From: Nitrosomonas europaea | Lineage (GTDB): Bacteria > Pseudomonadota > Gammaproteobacteria > Burkholderiales > Nitrosomonadaceae | Direction: 5' to 3' | Assembly: GCF_900167395.1 (NCBI RefSeq) | Contig: NZ_FUWK01000033.1 | Location: 1 to 32,000 of the forward strand | Length of the DNA: 32,000 bases | In this document: piece after piece, positions 1 to 10,275 of the stretch | Numbering within the stretch: position 1 is the first letter of the stretch | How the letters are laid out: each line of letters begins with the position of its first letter | The notes under the pieces: model-generated | Database searches by the model: none | What the model was told of the DNA's origin: nothing | Seen by the model: the letters and a program-made list of their open reading frames with translations, nothing else | Program-made: the position numbers and the translations under genes

Positions 1-348
1 CAGGCCGGTGATGCGCCAGAAGGACGAAAGTTGCTGAAAACCCTGGAGAATAAGGGATTCTCTGACACTCACGTGATCATGGATAAAGCGTATGAAGGGG
101 ATGAAACCCGACAGTTGGTACTTGATCTGGGGATGATTCCAGTGGTGCCGCCAAAAGCAAATCGTGTGTCACCCTGGGAGTACGACGTTGAAATGTACAA
201 AAAGCGTAATGAGGTGGAACGGCTGTTTCGTCGCCTGAAGAGATTCAGAAGAATCTTCTCTCGCTTTGACAAGTTGGATTCAGTTTTCCGATTCTTCATC
301 CATTTCGCTCTGATCGTAGATTATTTAATTAGTGTTAACAGGCCCTAG
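1..348 (+). CDS. IS5-family (IS427/IS1031-like) DDE transposase, C-terminal part; the 5' end lies outside the window
   Basis: Frame 1 is open from base 1 (QAGDAPEGRKLLKTL...) to TAG at 346-348. The tail DKAYEGDETRQLVLDLGMIPVVPPKANR...YKKRNEVERLFRRLKRFRRIFSRFDKL is the characteristic C-terminal DDE block of IS5-family transposases. The IS end should lie within a few tens of bp after the stop, but its partner IR is outside the window. Confidence 0.85.
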   Translation, partial: QAGDAPEGRKLLKTLENKGFSDTHVIMDKAYEGDETRQLVLDLGMIPVVPPKANRVSPWEYDVEMYKKRNEVERLFRRLKRFRRIFSRFDKLDSVFRFFIHFALIVDYLISVNRP

Positions 349-433
349 TTAACCGGCCGTCGGAGTGCCGAAAGCGTGGAGGGAACCTGCAAGTGCAGCT
401 TCTTGGCGGTCCGCTCGAAGCGACGGTTAGCCC

Positions 434-1048
434 TCATGCGGTACCTAGCAAAGAGTTAAGGGTTCTTGTACCTGAAGGCGATAATAACCAGCCGAGTGCT
501 CCGCAGTTGAGTATGACGGTAACCCAGAACGTGGTTTGGAATGACGCTTTGGCTGACTTGTGCCGAAGTAGTCGCTGTGCGGCCAGAGCACCGGGCCAAC
601 CACCGAGAAGGGCGAATAAATGCAATGTACTTTCCTGGATTCGCCATTGATTCCGTAAGGCTGCGGATTTGTCGAATGCGTAGGCGAAGAAGGCAACGAT
701 ACTTGCAATGGTGTAAAACGCGAGGACAGGACTGGGAAGCCGGCCAGCGACGACGACACCAACGACAAAGATCAGGAAACAAACAGCGAATAGTGGGGGA
801 AGGCTGCTGCGGCTCGGAGCCTTAGGCGGTGTGGGCTGTTCGCCAACAAACGCGACAGCTTTCGCTTGGGAGCGGCCTTTACTATCGACCGTGAGTTCAT
901 AGGTGACGAGTTCGTTTCCTTCTGGCCGGCGCTGCCGGCTGGAAAACGAGTTGATATGTACAAAGATTTGCTCTCCGCCGCCGTTGGGTGTGACGAAGCC
1001 AAAGCCTTTGTCATCCTTCCACGTGGTAATTCGGCCTTGATAACGCAT
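434..1048 (-). CDS. Cold-shock domain fused to a DUF1294 membrane domain
   Basis: ATG at 1048, TGA at 434-436. The N-terminus MRYQGRITTWKDDKGFGFVTPNGGGEQIFVHINSF is a canonical CspA-like OB fold (KGFGF motif). A Pro-rich linker is followed by several hydrophobic helices containing HLFALLGGWPGALAAQRLLRHKS, typical of DUF1294. The architecture is recurrent but functionally uncharacterised. Confidence 0.85.
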   Translation of the reverse strand: MRYQGRITTWKDDKGFGFVTPNGGGEQIFVHINSFSSRQRRPEGNELVTYELTVDSKGRSQAKAVAFVGEQPTPPKAPSRSSLPPLFAVCFLIFVVGVVVAGRLPSPVLAFYTIASIVAFFAYAFDKSAALRNQWRIQESTLHLFALLGGWPGALAAQRLLRHKSAKASFQTTFWVTVILNCGALGWLLSPSGTRTLNSLLGTA

Positions 1049-1132
1049 ATCGATTTGATGAGAGGGCTAACATCTAAATTCACCGGTGCGCCGCCGCAGC
1101 GCGTAGCGCGGAGGTGTCCGCCCCAACGGCTG

Positions 1133-1700
1133 GTTAGATTTCATTTTGTGATCTTGGCCTTTTCGGTGGCAGCCACAAGCCCCTTTAGGAATCGGATTCC
1201 CTTCTCCAGCTCGTCGCGTTTAACTTTGTGGGGTTCGGCGCTTGCATGAAGAGCGGTGTTTGCCTTATGGGCGGCGTCCCCGCGTTTAGCCACCAGTGAA
1301 TCCAGCACTTTCTTCGAGGTGCTACTGTCGTAATTCTCCCACACCCAATCCTTGGTGATGTCCACGTCGAAGTAGTCGATAAAGATACGCCGGGTACGTT
1401 CATCATTTGGGTTGAAAAAACGCTTGAGATCTTCCTCAAGACGGCGCCGTACAAATTTTCCTAGAGGGCTCCCTTCTACCGCTTGAAGCCACGTGTCAAT
1501 CTCTGACTGGAGACGATCCTTAACGTAGGTTTCCCATGCCGCCAGTGCCATGACCAGTCCAGCGCGCTTCAAGACTTCGCCGTTGTGGCCGTTTGGCACT
1601 GTCTTCTCCGCGTCGTGCCTCGCGAGGAGATCCTCAGCGTCTCGGATGGCTCTTTCGAATGCGTCGAATGCTTTGGTCATGGCTGGTAATGAAATCTAAC
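1133..1700. repeat. Perfect 13-bp inverted repeat pair bracketing the HEPN ORF (arms 1133-1145 and 1688-1700)
   Basis: Plus strand 1133-1145 reads gttagatttcatt. Plus strand 1688-1700 reads aatgaaatctaac, its exact reverse complement. One arm overlaps the stop codon; the other ends 7 nt upstream of the ATG. Confidence 0.9.
1141..1680 (-). CDS. Stand-alone HEPN-domain protein (putative RNase), RiboL-PSP-HEPN-like layout
   Basis: ATG at 1680, TGA at 1141-1143; 179 aa, predicted all-helical. R133-GDAA-H138 fits the HEPN Rx4-6H motif in the C-terminal third. It is preceded by the conserved-looking helix LVMALAAWETYVKD. Family placement is from memory of HEPN architectures, not from a search. Confidence 0.6.
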   Translation of the reverse strand: MTKAFDAFERAIRDAEDLLARHDAEKTVPNGHNGEVLKRAGLVMALAAWETYVKDRLQSEIDTWLQAVEGSPLGKFVRRRLEEDLKRFFNPNDERTRRIFIDYFDVDITKDWVWENYDSSTSKKVLDSLVAKRGDAAHKANTALHASAEPHKVKRDELEKGIRFLKGLVAATEKAKITK

Positions 1701-1703
1701 GTT

Positions 1704-1725
1704 TATGCACCGTAAACGGTGCATA
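1704..1725. promoter_or_regulatory. Perfect palindrome (9-bp arms, 4-nt spacer) just upstream of the HEPN gene; candidate operator or 5' hairpin
   Basis: tatgcaccg-taaa-cggtgcata at 1704-1725. It lies 3 nt outside the right IR arm and 24 nt upstream of the ATG at 1680. Confidence 0.4.
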
Positions 1726-2010
1726 CTTCTTTGTAAAAGGGTGTATAACAAAACTCATTATTCAGTAAGGTTCTGAGTTAAAAAGAATTTAATAAATTAA
1801 ATATCGCGATCTTCTGTTTTGATGACACCTTGCTCATTCGATCAGCTTCGCGGCAGCCTGCTACTCTGAGCAGGAGAAAATCAGCTCCTTTAAAATTTCA
1901 GAAATGAGGTTTCAGGTATTTTGCTGCGTTTGCAGTTGATCTTAATCAGCGAGCAAAGGAGGAATTATCTGTTTATTGCGGTGAGAATGAGGGTGACTGA
2001 TATCCTGCCA

Positions 2011-2391
2011 TCAGCTTTCATCAAACGCGTTTCTGATCCATTCGATTTCATTTTCCCGGTTGCCACTGATCAGGACTGCATCGAAGCGGCAGGGAAAGTC
2101 ACCTTCATGTCCCGCCAGATAATGACGGGCGGTGCGTATCAGTCTGGACTGCTTGGCAGCGGTGATGCTGGCGGCTGCGCCACCAAACCGGTCACTGGAG
2201 CGCATCCTGACTTCAACGAACACTACTGTATCGTCCTCCCGCATGATCAGGTCGATTTCACCGAAGCGGCAGCGGTAATTTTTTTCCAGCAACGTCAGTT
2301 TCTGCTGCTGGAGAAAGGCAGCGGCGCACTGCTCGGCATCACTGCCTTTGTTTCCTGCGGATGACATGGGAGTGTCAGTAACTATTGGCAA
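2011..2391 (-). CDS. yraN: YraN family (UPF0102) endonuclease-like protein
   Basis: GEIDLIMREDDTVVFVEVRMRSSDRFGGAAASITAAKQSRLIRTARHYL...CRFDAVLISG...IEWIRNAFD closely parallels E. coli YraN. The start could be the second Met at 2367. Confidence 0.85.
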   Translation of the reverse strand: MPIVTDTPMSSAGNKGSDAEQCAAAFLQQQKLTLLEKNYRCRFGEIDLIMREDDTVVFVEVRMRSSDRFGGAAASITAAKQSRLIRTARHYLAGHEGDFPCRFDAVLISGNRENEIEWIRNAFDES

Positions 2392-2473
2392 AGGGTTCTG
2401 GATTGTTTCATCCTTTCAGGATTCGCAAAGACAGTTTTTTACGGTTACGCACCACATTCGGAAGAATCCATTT

Positions 2474-4261
2474 TTATCCATGCGCTCTCATCTTTTCTCC
2501 GGTTTGTACTTGCCACAGGTTGGTGTACAGACCGTTACGCGCCAGGAGGGCCTCGTGTGTACCGGTTTCCACTACTTCACCCTTGTCCAGTACATAAATG
2601 CAATGGGCATTACGGATGGTGGAAAGACGGTGTGCGATCACAATGGTGGTGCGGCCAACAGTAATCCGTTCCAGAGAACGCTGGATGGCTGCTTCTGTTT
2701 CATTATCCACTGCTGAAGTAGCTTCATCGAGTACCAGCACCGGCGGATTCTTGAGAACAGCACGGGCAATCGAGATGCGCTGTCGCTGGCCGCCGGAGAG
2801 TTTCTGCCCGCGTTCGCCTACGATGGTCTGATAATCATCCGGCAGTTCCATGATGAAATCATGTGCCTCAGCTGTTCTGGCTGCGGCGATGACATCTTCC
2901 ATATGGGCGCCGGACGAACCATACGCGATATTTTCATACACCGTGCCATGGAACAGATAAACGTCCTGGCTGACCAGACCGATCGATTTGCGCAGATCAT
3001 GCAGGCGCAAATCACGGATATCGTGACCATCCAGCAGAATACGTCCTTGTTGCGGCTCGTAGAAACGGAGCAGCAGTTTGACTATCGTACTCTTGCCGCT
3101 GCCGGTAGCCCCGACCAGTGCAATTGTCTGGCCGGCATGAACAGTCAGGGAAAGATGGTTCAGTGTCGATGCGCGCCGCTCATAGTTGAAGCTGATATCG
3201 TCAAAAATGATTTCGCCGCTGACCTGTGCCGCGGGTAGTGTTTGCGGCCCGTCTGTAATGGTCGGTTGAGCCTGTAATAAATCCAGCACGCGGTGTGTGG
3301 AGGCCATCGCGCGCTGGTACAGATCGAGTGTTTCCCCCAGGCGAGTGAGCGGCCACAGCAGGCGCTGGGTCATGAATACCAGAATGCTGTACGCGCCGAC
3401 ATTCAGTTCGCCGCCAGCAGCCATTAGCCCCGCTGCAATCATGATGGCACTGAAACCGAGTGCGATCACCATACGGATGATCGGTACAAAGGCAGCACTG
3501 AGGGCAATCGCGTGCTGATTCTTTTCCTGATAGATCTGGCTTTCGCGCTCAATCTGGCGTAATTCATACGGTTCAGTCGTATAACTTTTGATGGTGGCAA
3601 TGCCGCCAAGATTATTGGACAGATAGCTGTTCAGAATGCTGACCTGTTCGCGGACGGCCATATAGCGCGGAGCAATGCGTTTCTGAAACAGGTAGGAACC
3701 GGCCACGACGAATGGCATGGGCAATAACGCCATCCATGCCACGCCAGGTGTCAGGTAGATGAACATGCCACCCACTGTGATGACGGTGGTCAGAAGCTGA
3801 ATGAGGTCATTTGCTCCGACATCCAGAAACCGCTCCAGCTGATTGATGTCATCGTTCAGGATCGCCATCATCCCGCCGGTGCTGCGTGCCTCGAAGTAGG
3901 CCAGCTCCAGTTTCTGAACATGATCATAGGCATCCAGGCGCAACGTATGCTGAATACTCTGCGCCAGGTTGCGCCAGCAGAGCTTGAGCAGATATTCCCA
4001 GATGGATTCGAATCCCCAGACGATGAGGGTGATCGTAGCCAGTATCCAGAGCTGGGTCGAGACCTCCGGAAATCCCAGCCGGGCAAATACCGAAGATTGC
4101 TGATTGACGACGATGTCTACTGCCATCCCTATCAATACCGGCGGCGCCAGATCGAACAGCTTATTGAGAATCGAAAATAATGTAGCCAGCCAGATACGGC
4201 CGCGAAAAGCATGGCCGTAGCGCAGCAGGCGAATCAGCGGAGCGGATGAATGATTGGACAT
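2474..4261 (-). CDS. ABC exporter, fused permease/ATP-binding protein (MsbA/MdlB-like)
   Basis: Six-TM domain followed by Walker A GATGSGKST, signature LSGGQRQR, Walker B VLVLDEATSAVD and the H-loop IAHRL. The ORF is open to 4423. I place the start at ATG 4261 (MSNHSSAPLIRLLRY...) because the 54 upstream residues look non-native and would almost reach rsmI. Confidence 0.85.
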   Translation of the reverse strand: MSNHSSAPLIRLLRYGHAFRGRIWLATLFSILNKLFDLAPPVLIGMAVDIVVNQQSSVFARLGFPEVSTQLWILATITLIVWGFESIWEYLLKLCWRNLAQSIQHTLRLDAYDHVQKLELAYFEARSTGGMMAILNDDINQLERFLDVGANDLIQLLTTVITVGGMFIYLTPGVAWMALLPMPFVVAGSYLFQKRIAPRYMAVREQVSILNSYLSNNLGGIATIKSYTTEPYELRQIERESQIYQEKNQHAIALSAAFVPIIRMVIALGFSAIMIAAGLMAAGGELNVGAYSILVFMTQRLLWPLTRLGETLDLYQRAMASTHRVLDLLQAQPTITDGPQTLPAAQVSGEIIFDDISFNYERRASTLNHLSLTVHAGQTIALVGATGSGKSTIVKLLLRFYEPQQGRILLDGHDIRDLRLHDLRKSIGLVSQDVYLFHGTVYENIAYGSSGAHMEDVIAAARTAEAHDFIMELPDDYQTIVGERGQKLSGGQRQRISIARAVLKNPPVLVLDEATSAVDNETEAAIQRSLERITVGRTTIVIAHRLSTIRNAHCIYVLDKGEVVETGTHEALLARNGLYTNLWQVQTGEKMRAHG

Positions 4262-4443
4262 AAGAACGGTGGTTGGTTTGAATTGGGATTGAGCAAATCC
4301 GAAAGATCGGAAGCGGTATGGAACAGCCTTATCTGTTTTACCGGCAGCATCCGGCACATTGGAAAAAGCGGGCAACTGCCGTATAGTGCGCCCACACCCG
4401 CCGAAAACACCGGGATCAGCCATTTTCAGTCAGGGCCACGAAT

Positions 4444-5322
4444 ATGCCAGCTGCAGCAGGAGTATCCAAAGGGACATTATATGTGGTTGGTACCCCCATC
4501 GGGAATTTGCGCGACATTACCCTGCGCGCATTGGAAATATTGTCTGCGGTCGACTGTATTGCGGCTGAACACATTCAGCATGCGCAAAAGCTGCTGGCAG
4601 GGCATGCTTTGCATACCACGTCTACCCGTATCATGCCATTACATCAGCATAACGAAGGCAGCGCGGTGGAGAAAATCATCGAACTGCTGGGGAGCGGCAA
4701 ATCGGTCGCCCTGATCTCCGATGCGGGCACTCCGGCGATTTCCGATCCAGGCGCCTTGCTGGTGCAGCAGGTACTGGCGCGAAGCCTCCCGGTCGTGCCC
4801 ATTCCTGGCGCCAATGCGGCGTTGTGTGCTTTATCCGCATCCGGTCTGATTGCACCGCATTTTTTCTTTTATGGATTTTTACCGGCAAAAAGCGGGGAGC
4901 GTCAGCGCAAGCTGGCCGGTTTGAAAACGCTATACGCCTGTATCCTGGTTTTTTATGAAGCACCGCACCGTGTACTCGAATGTGTTGCGGATATGGTTGC
5001 CGTATTGGGTACCACCCGTGAAATCACGTTTGCCCGTGAACTGACCAAGCTATTCGAGACGATTCATACCTGTGCGCTGGGAGAAGCGCTGGACTGGCTG
5101 CAGGCCGATGAAAACCGGCTGAGAGGCGAGTTCGTTCTGTTGCTGGCGCCGGCAGAAGAACCTGGGCAGGAGGACATCAGCCCGCAAGCTGTACATGCGC
5201 TTGCCATCCTGCAAAGAGAACTGCCTTTGAAACAGGCGGTGCAACTGGCTGCAGAAATTACCGGTGAAGGCAGAAAAAAGCTCTATGCCCGGGCGCTGCT
5301 GGAACGAAAAACGGAAACATAG
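4444..5322 (+). CDS. rsmI: 16S rRNA (cytidine1402-2'-O)-methyltransferase RsmI
   Basis: GTLYVVGTPIGNLRDITLRALEIL...AEHIQH...ALISDAGTPAISDPG...VVPIPGANAA...GFLPAKSGERQ...FYEAPHR...ARELTKLFETIH matches E. coli RsmI almost block for block. Confidence 0.9.
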   Translation: MPAAAGVSKGTLYVVGTPIGNLRDITLRALEILSAVDCIAAEHIQHAQKLLAGHALHTTSTRIMPLHQHNEGSAVEKIIELLGSGKSVALISDAGTPAISDPGALLVQQVLARSLPVVPIPGANAALCALSASGLIAPHFFFYGFLPAKSGERQRKLAGLKTLYACILVFYEAPHRVLECVADMVAVLGTTREITFARELTKLFETIHTCALGEALDWLQADENRLRGEFVLLLAPAEEPGQEDISPQAVHALAILQRELPLKQAVQLAAEITGEGRKKLYARALLERKTET

Positions 5323-5343
5323 ACAATTATCCACTCGCAATGA

Positions 5344-6396
5344 TCATGAGTCACAATCTTTTTCTTTCCTGCGATTAAACTCGCGATAAATGCTCGGCGC
5401 CACGCCGATCCAGCGCTTGAAGGCGAGATTGAACGCCGGGAGTGCCGTATATCCCAGCAGGCCACAGATGTTGCTGATGGGAACATCGGTCGTTTCCAGC
5501 ATCTCGCATGCAAGTGATTCCCTCACCTTGTCCAGGATCGCCGAAAAGCTGGTGTTTTCCTGCTGCAGCAGGCGCTGCAGCTTCTTTGGACTGAGTCCCA
5601 GCGATACCGCGAAGTACTCGAGATTGCACAGGCTGGTATTGAGCACGATCGGGATGCCAGCGGCGACGGTTGCCGCGACCGACTGATCATAGAGCGGCAT
5701 CTTGGCAATCCGGTAACGCAGATAGAGATCGAGCAATGGCTCGAGTCCGGCCAGGCGACCATTGGTCGGTCGATTGAGATATTCATGCGGGAATACGAGC
5801 TCGTTGTGCGCAGCTTCGAACTCGACCGGGCAGTCGAAAAGTGCTTCATGCGGTTGCGTGTCACAAGGACGGGCATGGCGGAACCGGATGAGATGGGCTT
5901 TTTCATCTGTAGCATCGATCACGGTTCTGGCCATTCGGTAGAATGTAGCGACCAGTCCTTCTGTCTGCTGGCGCGGGGATTTTGCCAGGGGATCCTTCAA
6001 CAGCCGCACGTATGCGAACGGGCCGCCGTCCCTGATCAGTAACGGAACCCAGGCATTCGTGTAGTAGCGCGCGTAGCGCTCGCATGCGTCAAGCCATTCT
6101 TCAAAGGTGTGCGTGATCTGTGAAAGAAAGATTGCTGCTCCTGCGGTGGGATAAGTATTCGGCAGCGAAAAAGCATGATCCAGGCCGAAGTTCGGACGTC
6201 CTAGTTCCTGCGCCGCTAGTTCGCAGAATATACCCTGGCGGGGCCAGGAGATGAGTATGTCGGGATTGCTGAACGCTTCCCTTGGCAGCCCTGCCTGGTC
6301 GGCCAGGGTATGGAGATCACCACCGGATGAATGGACGAGATCATCGAATCCAAACAGGCAATTCGGACGGATGTAGGGCTCTCGCCGCCCAATCAT
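5344..6396 (-). CDS. AraC-family transcriptional regulator with an N-terminal AraC-binding-like domain
   Basis: C-terminal HTH ...SNICGLLGYTALPAFNLAFKRWIGVAPSIYRE. The ORF is open to a TTG at 6534. ATG 6396 (MIGRREPYIRPN...) gives a typical length of about 350 aa, and the extra 46 aa are low-complexity. Confidence 0.8.
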   Translation of the reverse strand: MIGRREPYIRPNCLFGFDDLVHSSGGDLHTLADQAGLPREAFSNPDILISWPRQGIFCELAAQELGRPNFGLDHAFSLPNTYPTAGAAIFLSQITHTFEEWLDACERYARYYTNAWVPLLIRDGGPFAYVRLLKDPLAKSPRQQTEGLVATFYRMARTVIDATDEKAHLIRFRHARPCDTQPHEALFDCPVEFEAAHNELVFPHEYLNRPTNGRLAGLEPLLDLYLRYRIAKMPLYDQSVAATVAAGIPIVLNTSLCNLEYFAVSLGLSPKKLQRLLQQENTSFSAILDKVRESLACEMLETTDVPISNICGLLGYTALPAFNLAFKRWIGVAPSIYREFNRRKEKDCDS

Positions 6397-6675: not shown

Positions 6676-9600
6676 ATGAAATTTTCCACAATCCTTACCT
6701 TCCTGAGTGGTACCACCTTCGTATATCCTGCCGCATTTGCGCAAAGTATCATCGCCAGCGGTAATATTCTTCCCGGTATCCCGGCGCCGCCTCTTGCGCT
6801 ATGGCAACCTGCCAATTTACGTGTGGGCGTGAATGCAGCGGGCACGCTTTCCATTACCGATGGTGGTATGGTTGCCGGTCCGGGTCAGGCGCTCCTCGGC
6901 TCTGCCGTTGGTAGTTCTGGCACGGTGATGGTCAGTGGTAATGATTCCCTGTTCTCCACCGTATTGCAAATGCACGTGGGTAGTAGTGGCACGGGCACTC
7001 TCAAGATTGAGGACAGGGGCACCGCCAATATCGGTACATTCCTTTATATCGGCCGTTTCATTGGTTCCGATGGCCTCGTGACTGTGAGCGGCGCGGGATC
7101 GAGGCTGACCAACGGCAACATGATGCAGGTCGGTAGCGAAGGCACCGGCGCTTTGATCATCGAAGATGGTGCAACGGTGAACAGCACGAACGTGACCCGG
7201 ATCGGCTGGAGCTCGACAGGTATAGGTACGGCTATCGTTCAGGGTTCCGGTTCAAGCTGGACAACGAACAACTCGATGTCCGTGGGTTTCGGCGGCTCTG
7301 GCAGATTGCTGATCGTAGATGGTGGCGCTGTAAGCAATGTCGAAGGCTTTGTCGGCCGCGAGACCGGATCGACCGGCGAGGTGACGGTCTCAGGCGCGGG
7401 TTCTTCCTGGTCGAACAGCGCGGCCCTTGAGATCGGCAGTTTCGGCATGGGCGAGTTGATGGTCGAAGACGGTGGTGCACTCAGCAACACGGATGGCCGG
7501 ATCGGGCGGGAGGCCGGCGCTATCGGTACCGTGACGATCAAGGATGCGGGTTCCACCTGGAGCAACACGGGTACGCTCTACATCGGCGATCTCGGCAAAG
7601 GTACGCTGACTGTTGCCGATGGCGGCAAGGCGAATATCGTGGCCAGCTTCGTGATTGGCCGCCAGGCGGGCGCCGAAGGTCTCGTGACCTTAAGCGGCGC
7701 GGGATCGAGCCTCATCAACACCAGTTCCACGCAGGTCGGCGGCGCGGGCAAGGGTACGCTGATCGTCGAGAATGGCGGCGTGGGCCAATCGAACAACCTC
7801 TCGGTCGGGGTCTCGTCAGGCAGCACCGGATCGGTCGCGGTTCGCGGCGCCGATTCACGCTGGATCGCAGGCAGCATCCTGACCATCGGCGCAAGCGGCC
7901 ATGGCACGCTGACGATCGAAGACGGCGGCTCGGTCACCAGCACTCTGACCACTATCGGGTCCAACACTTCGGGTCTCGGCGAAGCGACCGTCTCAGGCGC
8001 GGACTCCACCTGGACCAACAGCGGCGCCCTCATTGTAGGAGCACTGGGCAACGGCACGCTCACCGTCTCAGACGGCGGCATGGTTTCGAATGCAACCGCA
8101 GGTATTGGCGTCGGTACAGGCCGCCAGGGCGTGGCCCTGGTTTCCGGCGCTGGCGCACGCTGGATCAACAGCGGTGATTTAACCGTCGGTACCAACGGCA
8201 GCGCCACCCTGACCGTCGCAGACGGTGGCCATGTTAGTGTCGGCGGCGGCAACGGCATTGTTCATGTCGCTGAAGCCGCGACAGCAAATGGCGTGGTGAA
8301 TATCGGGGCTGCGGCGGGTAGTGCGCCGGTCGGGGCCGGCACGCTGGGCGCCGCCGAAGTTCGTTTTGGCGACGGCACCGGCAGGCTTAATTTCAATCAT
8401 ACCGATAGCGCCTATCTCTTCTCACCCGTCATCACCGGAAACGGGGCGCTCAATCACTATTCCGGCACGACCATCCTGACCGGCGACAACACCTATAGCG
8501 GTTCTACGATGATTGCGGGCGGTGTGCTCCAGCTCGGCAATGGCGGCACGAGCGGCTCGGTCACCAGCGACATCCAGATCGACAGCACAGGAACACTGCG
8601 CATTGATCGTTCAAATGACTGGACCTATGCAGGTATCCTTTCCGGGACTGGCGTCTTCGATCAATTGGGCACCGGTACGACGATGCTCACCGGCAACAGC
8701 GCTGCTTTTAACGGTACGACGACGGTTACGAATGGCCGTCTGATCGTTGGCATGGGCGGCGCCGGGACGCTCGGCGGTATGGTCAATGTGCTGGATGGCG
8801 CAACACTTGGCGGTTCGGGCACGGTCGGTAGCGCCGGGGCCGACGTCACCATCCTTGGCGGCGGTGTGCACGCGCCGGGTAACAGCGTTGGCGTTCAGAC
8901 CATTGCCGGCAACTACGTCAATTACGGCACACTGCGAATCGACGGTACACCGGCGGGGACGGACATGCTCATTGTGCAGGGTGGCGTCGATATTACCGGT
9001 GCCACCCTCGATCTCCAGCTTTCTCCTCCCGTGGCGTCGGGCTGGAATATCATCAACGGGCCGTTCACTATCATCGACAAGCAGAGTGCCGGCGCAGTGG
9101 CTGGCAGCTTCGGCGCGGTCAACAACAATCTGTTGTTCCTCGATCCATACGTGAATTATGCTGGTGGCGATGGCAACGATATCACGCTCGATTTCGTGCG
9201 CAATGACGTTGCCTTTGCATCGGTCGCGCTCACTCCGAACCAGATCGCGACGGGCAGGGGAATTGGTACGCTGCCTTATGGCCACCCGATATGGAACACG
9301 ATTGCGCTCATGAGCGATGAGGTCGCCGTGCGCCGGAGCTTCGACTTTCTTTCGGGAGAAATCCATGCCACTGCATCCAGCGTGCTGCTCGAAGAAAGCC
9401 GTTTTCCGCGCAGAGCAGTCAATGACCGGCTTCGATCCGCGTTTGACACAAATACCGACACTGCATTCTGGGCACATGGCTATGGGGCCTGGGCCGGTTG
9501 GCAGAGTGATGGCAACGCTGCCTCCCTCAAACGCGATACTGGCGGGTTGCTCCTGGGCCTCGATGGTCAGCTTGGCAACTGGCGGACAGGCGTCATGACC

Positions 9601-10275
9601 GGCCGTAGCTGGACTGGTGTGACGGTTGCTGACCGGGCCTCGACCGCCGAGGCCGGAACGTGGTATGCCGGTCTCTATGGAGGCACCCAATGGGGCGATC
9701 TGGGCTTGCGTCTTGGTTTGTTGCATGGCGAGCATGACATCGACACCCGGCGCACGGTTGCCGTCCCCGGTCTTTCCGGAACTTTGCGCAGTACTCATGG
9801 TGCGAGTACGACCCAGGCTTTCGGAGAGCTGGCTCACACCCTCCATTTTGGCATTGTGCGCTATGAGCCATTTGCTAACCTCGCCCATATTCACACACGT
9901 TCGAACAGGTTTACCGAAACCGGGGGCAGTATGGCTCTGGCCGGCCGACGCAGCACGATGTCTGCGACTGTCATGACGCTGGGCCAACGCATCGAAGCTG
10001 CACATGTTTTCCGCGGGACAGGCATCAGAACCGTTGGCATGATCGGTTGGCAGCATGTTTGGGGTGATGTGATTCCGCGTTCGACCCATCGCTTTTCCAT
10101 GGGTGATCCCTTTACCATCGCCGGTACGCCACTCGCACGCAACAATCTGCTGGTCGAGGGCGGGTTCGAATTGTCACTGGGCAGGCGTGCGGCGATTGGT
10201 GCCAGCTATACCGGCCGCTTCGCACATAACGGGCATGATCATGCCGCTACTGCAGTGCTGCGCATCGGTTTCTGA
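6676..10275 (+). CDS. Autotransporter (type Va secretion) outer-membrane protein, 1199 aa
   Basis: Signal peptide MKFSTILTFLSGTTFVYPAAFA-QS. Ten Gly/Thr-rich passenger repeats of about 50 aa follow. Next come autotransporter-associated beta-strand repeats (YSGTTILTGDNTYSGSTMIAGGVLQLGNGG). The C-terminus is a beta-barrel translocator ending ...AATAVLRIGF with a terminal Phe. Confidence 0.9.
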   Translation: MKFSTILTFLSGTTFVYPAAFAQSIIASGNILPGIPAPPLALWQPANLRVGVNAAGTLSITDGGMVAGPGQALLGSAVGSSGTVMVSGNDSLFSTVLQMHVGSSGTGTLKIEDRGTANIGTFLYIGRFIGSDGLVTVSGAGSRLTNGNMMQVGSEGTGALIIEDGATVNSTNVTRIGWSSTGIGTAIVQGSGSSWTTNNSMSVGFGGSGRLLIVDGGAVSNVEGFVGRETGSTGEVTVSGAGSSWSNSAALEIGSFGMGELMVEDGGALSNTDGRIGREAGAIGTVTIKDAGSTWSNTGTLYIGDLGKGTLTVADGGKANIVASFVIGRQAGAEGLVTLSGAGSSLINTSSTQVGGAGKGTLIVENGGVGQSNNLSVGVSSGSTGSVAVRGADSRWIAGSILTIGASGHGTLTIEDGGSVTSTLTTIGSNTSGLGEATVSGADSTWTNSGALIVGALGNGTLTVSDGGMVSNATAGIGVGTGRQGVALVSGAGARWINSGDLTVGTNGSATLTVADGGHVSVGGGNGIVHVAEAATANGVVNIGAAAGSAPVGAGTLGAAEVRFGDGTGRLNFNHTDSAYLFSPVITGNGALNHYSGTTILTGDNTYSGSTMIAGGVLQLGNGGTSGSVTSDIQIDSTGTLRIDRSNDWTYAGILSGTGVFDQLGTGTTMLTGNSAAFNGTTTVTNGRLIVGMGGAGTLGGMVNVLDGATLGGSGTVGSAGADVTILGGGVHAPGNSVGVQTIAGNYVNYGTLRIDGTPAGTDMLIVQGGVDITGATLDLQLSPPVASGWNIINGPFTIIDKQSAGAVAGSFGAVNNNLLFLDPYVNYAGGDGNDITLDFVRNDVAFASVALTPNQIATGRGIGTLPYGHPIWNTIALMSDEVAVRRSFDFLSGEIHATASSVLLEESRFPRRAVNDRLRSAFDTNTDTAFWAHGYGAWAGWQSDGNAASLKRDTGGLLLGLDGQLGNWRTGVMTGRSWTGVTVADRASTAEAGTWYAGLYGGTQWGDLGLRLGLLHGEHDIDTRRTVAVPGLSGTLRSTHGASTTQAFGELAHTLHFGIVRYEPFANLAHIHTRSNRFTETGGSMALAGRRSTMSATVMTLGQRIEAAHVFRGTGIRTVGMIGWQHVWGDVIPRSTHRFSMGDPFTIAGTPLARNNLLVEGGFELSLGRRAAIGASYTGRFAHNGHDHAATAVLRIGF
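6838..8236 (+). repeat. Ten in-frame tandem repeats of about 150 bp (about 50 aa) in the autotransporter passenger, T5SS/PEP-CTERM-associated repeat type
   Basis: Recurrent unit G-x-G-x-L-x-[IV]-x-[DN]-G-G ... G-x-x-G-x-V-x-V-S-G-x-x-S-x-W-x-N ... [IV]-G. Ten unit starts are visible: AGTLSITDGG, TGTLKIEDRG, TGALIIEDGA, SGRLLIVDGG, MGELMVEDGG, KGTLTVADGG, KGTLIVENGG, HGTLTIEDGG, NGTLTVSDGG, SATLTVADGG. An identical 17-mer agcggcgcgggatcgag occurs at 7087-7103 and 7693-7709, 606 bp apart and in frame. Confidence 0.8.

Follow-up and report, generated by a model that had tools for sequence, protein, structure and literature searches.

Adjacent HEPN and cold-shock-DUF1294 genes of Nitrosomonas europaea as probable independent integron-type cassettes

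INTRODUCTION

Do two adjacent genes of Nitrosomonas, one for a stand-alone HEPN protein and the other for a membrane protein with a cold-shock domain (CSD) and a DUF1294 domain, belong together? The question is raised by a 32,000-nucleotide (nt) stretch of Nitrosomonas europaea DNA (contig NZ_FUWK01000033.1, positions 1 to 32,000), which is called the window here and in whose first 1.7 kb both genes are read from the minus strand. A preliminary description of this DNA had taken the pair for a GC-rich, imported insert and a candidate two-gene toxin or defence module. The analysis reported here indicated that positions 345-1700 are very probably the start of an integron-type array in the Nitrosomonas chromosome, composed, on comparative sequence grounds, of two independent cassettes, each with one open reading frame (ORF) and an attC site, and not a co-evolved module. 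The features on which this reading depends are listed below; R1 and R2 are the two attC covariance models described in the next section, and loci compared with the window carry L numbers.

1141-1680, minus strand: gene encoding a solitary RiboL-PSP-family HEPN protein of 179 aa that has an R133-x4-H138 motif (Pfam PF18735, 79 bits)
434-1048, minus strand: gene for a 204-aa protein with CSD and DUF1294 domains (Pfam CSD, 42.5 bits; DUF1294, 84.5 bits)
1065-1139, minus strand: attC-1, predicted site of the HEPN cassette (R2, 16.1 bits; top match of R1, 14.9 bits)
345-432, minus strand: attC-2, predicted site of the CSD-DUF1294 cassette, truncated (best window match of R2, 20.5 bits; R1, 14.3 bits)
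1071-1699, minus strand: predicted HEPN gene cassette of 629 bp, made up of a 19-nt leader, a single ORF and attC-1 (complementarity of start and R''; homology to L011)
345-1070, minus strand: predicted CSD-DUF1294 gene cassette, starting TTAGCC (1070), its 3' end interrupted by IS5 (comparison with L091-L093)
1694-1700, minus strand: junction core GTTAGAT, at which a constant left arm gives way to the array (crossover between G1700 and T1699)
1700-2003, minus strand: conserved ~310-bp AT-rich non-coding element ending at the junction (copies of 86-97% nt identity at seven metagenome loci)

RESULTS

Two attC sites in the window, one behind each gene

Model R1 was built from 13 attC sites, all from loci with HEPN homologues and none from the window. 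A regex-plus-folding scanner was used solely to choose the seed sites; as evidence it was rejected, since its background was too high (314 matches in real versus 197 in shuffled loci) and its pattern was strand-symmetric. MAFFT alignment was performed on 18 seed sites, and 5 that aligned poorly were excluded. The resulting model had 20 base pairs, in which 89% of cells paired, compared to 27-47% when the partners were slid; changes on both sides were detected in 12 pairs, and the covariation score was reached by none of 500 shuffles. When R1 was searched unfiltered on both strands of the window (64 kb), the two best matches lay on the minus strand at 1139-1065 (14.9 bits) and 432-333 (14.3 bits), the next match scoring ~8 bits. 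Model R2, rebuilt from 124 matches, detected only these two sites at an E value of ≤10 (432-333, 20.5 bits, E 0.017; 1139-1065, 16.1 bits, E 0.15). Both sites begin 2 nt past a stop codon, on the same strand as the genes. The remaining 30 kb, housekeeping DNA that served as a negative control, were empty.

The boxes of attC-1 are R'' ATCTAAC, which fits RYYYAAC, and R' GTTAGCC, with the crossover predicted between G1071 and T1070. In attC-2, positions 432-426 form R'' (GGCTAAC), and L' ends in GGTTAAC. An intact attC-2 was found in L090 and L108, two contigs that are free of the insertion sequence (IS) at this position and whose identity to the window begins at base 345; there the site ends L'(..GGTTAAC)-TAGCAC-R'(GTTGAGG), and the intact 98-nt copy at L090 1376-1473 scored 26.9 bits. 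In the window, IS5 ends at base 344, directly against the CTAG of the spacer that separates L' from R'; the R' box, which reads GTTGAGG in L090, would lie on the far side of the IS. It follows that IS5 inserted inside attC-2 and parted it from its R' box.

The two sites are unrelated in sequence (attC-1, 75 nt; attC-2, 98 nt). attC-1 shared 85% identity over 46 nt with a homogeneous family of attC sites at L011 1703-9608, where 14 sites of 69 nt are spaced 500-700 bp apart. As attC-2 does not resemble this family, different origins are indicated for the two. Locus L011 is a gammaproteobacterial metagenome-assembled genome (OZ257136) with a 14-cassette array, which includes a HEPN cassette of 85% amino acid identity. 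The resemblance suggests that the HEPN cassette of the window may have been born in an L011-like array.

Cassette boundaries defined by comparison with related contigs

The predicted HEPN cassette starts with TTAGATTT, the complement of the R'' in the same cassette (AAATCTAA), and a cassette that had been circularised should show just this. The HEPN cassette of L011 was homologous over window 1098-1702. The boundary of the second cassette was examined in the Nitrosomonas-like loci L091-L093, which have the CSD cassette only (window 426-1071, 94.3% nt identity) behind another upstream gene. Homology broke at the 5' end at G|TTAGCC in the window versus G|TTAACC in L091-L093, the canonical boundary being G|TTRRRY.

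Five contigs of one Nitrosomonas lineage, including the window, had the HEPN gene next to the CSD gene (96-99.7% identity), and the adjacency was confined to this lineage. L090 was 99.7% identical to window 345-1807 and then had yoeB in place of the IS, while L104 and L110 had the window arrangement at 96% identity. The fifth contig, the IS-free L108, had the HEPN and CSD genes followed by an opposite-strand yefM-yoeB pair, then a VOC-like ORF and a yraN pseudogene that has diverged. A further contig, L106, was 95.7% identical to window 1696-6000 and had the same junction, followed by a different 105-aa cassette with a 50.6-bit attC site and then yoeB. This is a cassette-content polymorphism inside one lineage. 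In L106 6521-7166, compared with window 345-1700, the sister strain had this other cassette replacing both HEPN and CSD, and yoeB followed in both versions.

The HEPN and CSD-DUF1294 genes as cassettes in other genomes

A survey with one genome per species covered 80 loci with a HEPN homologue and their 6-kb flanks. Using R2 at an E value of ≤0.1, 140 of 141 attC matches were in the direction of the HEPN gene (R1: 123 of 124). An attC site began within ~10 nt of the HEPN stop codon in at least 22 species loci, and in at least 12 loci an attC site also ended 6-27 nt ahead of the HEPN ATG, indicating that the cassette there holds HEPN alone. Of the 80 species, at least 22 have a RiboL-PSP HEPN gene as an integron cassette of one gene, recurrent and with no partner. 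Besides L011, further arrays were present in L087, L075, L025 (Vibrio diabolicus), L086, L066 and L053. Homologues of the integron integrase IntI, divergent from the HEPN gene and within 6 kb upstream of it, were detected in L068, L077, L082, L086 and L087, and fragments in five more loci.

The CSD-DUF1294 gene was also observed in an integron. A copy with 82% identity in Candidatus Accumulibacter lies inside a complete chromosomal integron, with an attC site of 48.9 bits at its stop codon and a bona fide IntI (L099; TIGR02249, 489 bits, cut-off 265). The array of this integron also contains a cassette for the antiviral reverse transcriptase Drt5 (652 bits). In the variant L102, a HEPN_RiboL-PSP cassette is separated from the CSD cassette by two cassettes and an IS110. 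Across L099-L103 (e.g., L099 1062-10442), IntI is divergent from the array, Drt5 forms a 1.5-kb cassette, IS110 and IS66 have inserted, and a DUF4145 cassette directly follows CSD-DUF1294. No attC site was detected with the model in the CSD-DUF1294 loci of Thauera and Sterolibacterium, and this family therefore also lives outside integrons.

No conserved partner of the HEPN gene

The preliminary description had proposed that the pair be judged by a survey of conserved adjacency. When the 80 loci were searched by tblastn with the CSD-DUF1294 protein, none of the 80 species had a DUF1294 match in the 6-kb flanks of HEPN. The two-gene module therefore fails on the measure chosen by the preliminary description itself. 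The sole CSD match was a plain cold-shock gene of ~66 aa in Marinobacter (L040 6528-7281). It lies two cassettes downstream of HEPN, with an attC site at 6960-7046 in between, and cold-shock proteins may thus also travel as cassettes.

When the ORFs lying up to 1.2 kb from HEPN were clustered across the same loci, no conserved neighbour was detected. The largest clusters comprised 4 loci, and one of these clusters was the integron integrase. The gene after HEPN in Methylomonas encodes an alpha/beta hydrolase, and in Verrucomicrobiales HEPN lies amid unrelated hypothetical genes. An MNT gene was present neither in the HEPN cassette nor in the window region, and none was conserved near HEPN in the 80 genomes; the earlier remark that an MNT-type or other antitoxin ORF was missing from the window held.

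Properties of the HEPN protein

The profile search that had been suggested for the 179-aa protein gave a match above the curated threshold, PF18735 (HEPN_RiboL-PSP), with an E value of 5.5e-22 and 79 bits against a cut-off of 28.4. Residues 12-174 were aligned to profile positions 3-187 of 191, and the same family was present in 120 of 120 homologues among the matches listed. R133 and H138, noted in the preliminary description as a HEPN motif, were invariant when 28 homologues with identities as low as 55% were aligned, as were a WETY block and R39. An AlphaFold2 model was all-helical (pLDDT 84, pTM 0.82); in it the Rx4H motif closes helix 119-138 and is followed by a loop, a position that matches the description of HEPN domains in PMC3710099. 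Foldseek comparison with the PDB ranked HEPN toxins at the top (8xeh, 8xdj and 7bxo, from HEPN-MNT systems), with weak values (E ~0.8, TM 0.45/0.58). A PDB sequence search with the HEPN family profile gave chance matches only, and 3jrt was not among them. The protein had no match in PHROGs and matched no Abi-type family in Pfam.

The closest named homologues among the matches listed were from Methylomonas (89% identity), Verrucomicrobiales, Methylobacter, Zhongshania and Anaerolineae. Scanning of species genomes added Synechococcus, Vibrio and other genera, and the distribution was patchy.

Properties of the CSD-DUF1294 protein

Both domains of the 204-aa protein were above their Pfam thresholds, in agreement with the fusion first described: an N-terminal CSD at residues 4-65 (cut-off 27 bits) and a C-terminal DUF1294 domain at residues 116-170 (cut-off 25 bits). 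A hydropathy scan detected at least two strongly hydrophobic segments at about residues 85-126. The protein is a putative membrane-tethered binder of single-stranded nucleic acid, with its cold-shock fold predicted to be cytoplasmic. More than 7,600 homologues were found, many of them named "cold shock and DUF1294 domain-containing protein", and the two-domain architecture was present in 120 of 120 homologues among the matches listed. The nearest relatives were betaproteobacterial, those of Nitrosomonas (93%) being followed by Azonexus, Accumulibacter and Thauera. PADLOC gave the protein a generic CSD_V match only, of 25 bits over the cold-shock domain.

In Pseudomonas syringae pv. porri, a transposon knock-out of a DUF1294 protein led to full resistance to phage KIL5 in one of eight clones (PMC7216180). 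This knock-out, the sole functional clue obtained here for the protein, hints that DUF1294 membrane proteins may matter for phage infection.

A conserved ~310-bp element at the array junction

A metagenome scan was performed with a 30-mer from the ~310-bp element, and seven loci (L104-L110) were detected, which present the element in at least three different upstream contexts. On the minus strand the element ends ...ACGGTGCATAAACG|TTAGAT. All copies end ...ACGGTGCATA(CTG)AACGTTA and are followed by differing cassettes; in alignment A5, five loci were identical through ...AACGTTA and unrelated beyond it. The copies in L105, L107 and L109 (86-92%) were in other contexts, each before a different cassette. 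The element behaves like an attI site in that its arm stays the same, the cassettes behind it vary and the crossover falls at G|TT. It is multi-copy, has no adjoining integrase and showed no Rfam match and no consensus promoter: the Rfam search of 1-2600 was without a match, and a sigma-70 promoter scan of 300-2100 did not find a promoter.

Two copies of the element were observed on one 133-kb contig. In L108 (1-1490) and L109 (10100-11760), a second yraN, 10-13% diverged and frameshifted in L108, lies past yefM-yoeB and the VOC-like ORF, and in the same regions this is followed by a second copy of the element and then by more cassettes. The upstream part of L109 is dense in toxin-antitoxin pairs (MazEF-like, RES-Xre and BrnT/A).

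Flanking genes and composition

Two further features delimit the array on either side.

1-344, plus strand: 3' portion of an insertion sequence of the IS5 family (positions 169-257 of the 258 in NCBIfam transpos_IS5_3; Pfam DDE_Tnp_1)
2011-2391, minus strand: yraN, chromosomal flank (NCBIfam YraN, 150 bits)

NCBIfam and Pfam both identified the C-terminal part of the transposase at 1-348 that had been noted before. Bases 1-348 encode its C-terminal third, with the stop codon at 346-348 falling within the CTAG target. The frame is open to base 1, so that IS5 extends beyond the edge of the window and need not be the remnant first described. On the minus strand the order is yraN (2391-2011), the ~310-bp element (2003-1700), the HEPN cassette (1699-1071) and the CSD cassette (1070 onwards). 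Beyond yraN, Pfam annotation of the window gave an ABC transporter gene and then a divergent rsmI. The RsmI protein was 87% identical to that of N. eutropha, and the host is a Nitrosomonas.

The proposal of a GC-rich insert had been based on the G+C of three 60-nt lines. These counts were correct (71.7%, 56.7% and 21.7%), but the segment with the two genes had 54.2% G+C, compared to 54.1% in yraN, 53.9% in the ABC transporter gene and 52.6% in the whole window. This is the 68th percentile among equal-sized windows, and the G+C of third codon positions was within the neighbours' range. The 72% line (1081-1140) is attC-1 between the genes, and the 22% line is a non-coding spacer. Composition was therefore ruled out as a sign of import: that the DNA is horizontally mobile stood, while the G+C offered as evidence for it did not. 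The real compositional outlier of the window is a 1,199-aa autotransporter gene at 6676-10275 (Autotransporter beta-domain, PATR repeat), with 60-62% G+C against the mean of 52.6%.

DISCUSSION

How the array may have arisen

If positions 345-1700 are the start of an integron-type array, the cassettes would have been captured singly, through IntI-catalysed recombination of attC with attI or attC, by an integrase that acted in trans or was later lost. HEPN and CSD-DUF1294 would then have become neighbours through shuffling and not through function. The landing of IS5 in the attC-2 spacer, which splits the site, should immobilise the second cassette. With attC-2 split and mismatches in the L stem of attC-1, present-day mobility of the cassettes is doubtful. 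No IntI was detected in the window, either by Pfam on 20 ORFs or by tblastn, and the array is accordingly classed as the CALIN type and not as a complete integron.

Several observations weigh against the array reading and the functional proposal that goes with it. The lack of IntI extends from the window to L104-L110. The attC scores in the window are modest (16-20 bits, E 0.017-0.15), the E values themselves being rough because of a shortened calibration, and the L stem of attC-1 is somewhat degenerate, with two mismatches. Both palindromes paired end to end in single-strand folding, with non-significant z-scores of -0.3 to -1.3, and folding energy was set aside as evidence for attC. At the left junction the attI status is unproven and no attC is recognisable, the attC model reaching only 3 bits over 1600-2100. 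As to function, the Foldseek similarity to HEPN toxins is non-significant at an E value of ~0.8, and PADLOC (PADLOC-DB 2.0) had no model that matched the HEPN protein. With scores this modest and folding non-significant, the case for the attC sites rests on position, strand and comparative boundaries and not on E values.

A possible role for the HEPN protein

The HEPN protein on its own stays a credible candidate for a toxin or defence function, by analogy with HEPN proteins described elsewhere. It is quite possible, if short of probable, that it is a self-contained, antitoxin-less RNase that would stay silent until a trigger such as phage or stress and would then cleave RNA and arrest growth, in the manner of abortive infection or dormancy. 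In a broader and more speculative form of this proposal, the RiboL-PSP HEPN protein would be an autonomous antitoxin-less anti-phage or growth-arrest RNase, spread by integrons as a ~630-bp one-gene cassette through many genera and at least five phyla; separately, the element at 1700-2003 would be an orphan attI platform, with one integrase in trans seeding several arrays per Nitrosomonas genome. An orphan, multi-copy attI-like element of this kind may account for the seeding of arrays without an integrase in ammonia oxidisers. A 2003 paper by Leon and Roy on the integron integrase of N. europaea is cited in PMC3108266 and PMC3001079.

A different view would keep the cassettes and see in HEPN a stress-induced dormancy RNase, or a selfish toxin that stabilises the array, and not an immune effector. 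A role in dormancy under stress was proposed in 2013 for the HEPN domains of integron cassettes (PMC3710099). The arrays examined here are rich in toxin-antitoxin cassettes, with yefM-yoeB next door and BrnT/A, MazEF and RES-Xre in L109, and the missing PADLOC match would fit this view as well. A stabilising toxin, however, requires a labile antitoxin, of which there was none in the cassette and none conserved nearby, and published HEPN-only cassettes act against phage (bioRxiv 10.1101/2024.07.02.601686). Overall, we regard this view as tentative and rather doubtful.

Far less can be said for the view that HEPN and CSD-DUF1294 are one toxin or defence module, with the membrane cold-shock protein as a sensor, antitoxin or second effector. 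The two genes do lie side by side in one orientation with 92 bp between them, the pair is retained in five contigs of one lineage (L090, L104, L108, L110 and the window), and a plain cold-shock gene lies two cassettes past HEPN in L040. However, the 92-bp spacer is the attC site, each gene occurs as a separate cassette elsewhere, the CSD cassette being found without HEPN, and different genes flank the nearest HEPN relatives (89% and 78% identity). The single integron with both genes has two cassettes and an IS between them, and a sister strain has neither gene at the same junction. As the survey did not detect any conserved partner, or the adjacency itself in any of the 80 species, the module is largely refuted and must be judged very improbable. 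The pairing of HEPN with a cold-shock membrane protein would then be an accident of cassette shuffling and not a new defence architecture, and a false lead is removed.

It is equally improbable that there is no integron structure and that an islet was brought in by IS5 or another route, its palindromes being terminators or REP-like (repetitive extragenic palindromic) repeats: IS5 directly adjoins, the window has no intI, and the attC and folding scores are modest, but array copies free of the IS exist (L090 and L108), the IS interrupts attC and does not bound an islet, homology breaks at G|TT, the palindromes lie on the right strand and in the right position and fit a structure model trained elsewhere, and neither was listed as terminator-like (a stem followed by a T run).

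Comparison with known systems

The cold-shock domain weakly resembles the cold-shock effectors of type V retrons (PADLOC CSD_V, NCBIfam retron_eff_Se72). Unlike these, the window protein has no reverse transcriptase beside it, and its matches are those of a generic CSD and fall well short of the cut-offs. Its architecture, with a membrane domain of the YsdA/COG3326 type, is that of thousands of proteobacterial cold-shock and DUF1294 proteins, and it differs from the Thauera and Sterolibacterium copies in being cassette-borne.

The HEPN protein shares with HEPN-MNT systems its small size and putative RNase toxin nature, and these systems gave its best, though weak, structural neighbours; it departs from them in that there is no MNT gene in the cassette or the window region or conserved in the 80 genomes. 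The RiboL-PSP family is described as distantly related to AbiD/AbiF (PMC3710099), and the solitary, partnerless HEPN protein resembles these single-gene abortive-infection proteins. Compared at the level of the superfamily, it is smaller than AbiD/AbiF and has no Abi-type Pfam match and no PADLOC match.

As in clusters of attC sites without an integron integrase (CALINs), the cassettes of the window are co-oriented and have attC sites with no intI nearby. The array starts at a conserved, multi-copy ~310-bp attI-like element, a feature not known to have been described for CALINs. The term CALIN reportedly stems from the work on IntegronFinder; the present use follows that in bioRxiv 10.1101/2024.07.02.601719.

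The closest parallels are HEPN-only integron cassettes. These comprise the "Integron cassette HEPN" family (PDB 3jrt), a different HEPN family for which the dormancy hypothesis was put forward (PMC3710099); Esos, a HEPN-only cassette of the chromosomal integron of Vibrio cholerae that protects against phage (bioRxiv 10.1101/2024.07.02.601686); and an AbiU2-HEPN cassette of V. mimicus, which also protects against phage (bioRxiv 10.64898/2026.03.17.712381). The window cassette is like these in having a small HEPN ORF with an attC site and no antitoxin in a chromosomal array. It differs in that its protein belongs to the PF18735 RiboL-PSP family, had no PDB sequence match, 3jrt included, and is known here by sequence. 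That family had been described in fusions with endoRNase L-PSP or in ParB operons, and not as a cassette gene (PMC3710099). While HEPN-only cassettes as such were already known, the RiboL-PSP family is a new addition to the cassette-borne HEPN genes, and since recent work has shown integron cassettes to be rich in very small anti-phage systems, the 179-aa protein offers defence screens an inexpensive and well-defined candidate.

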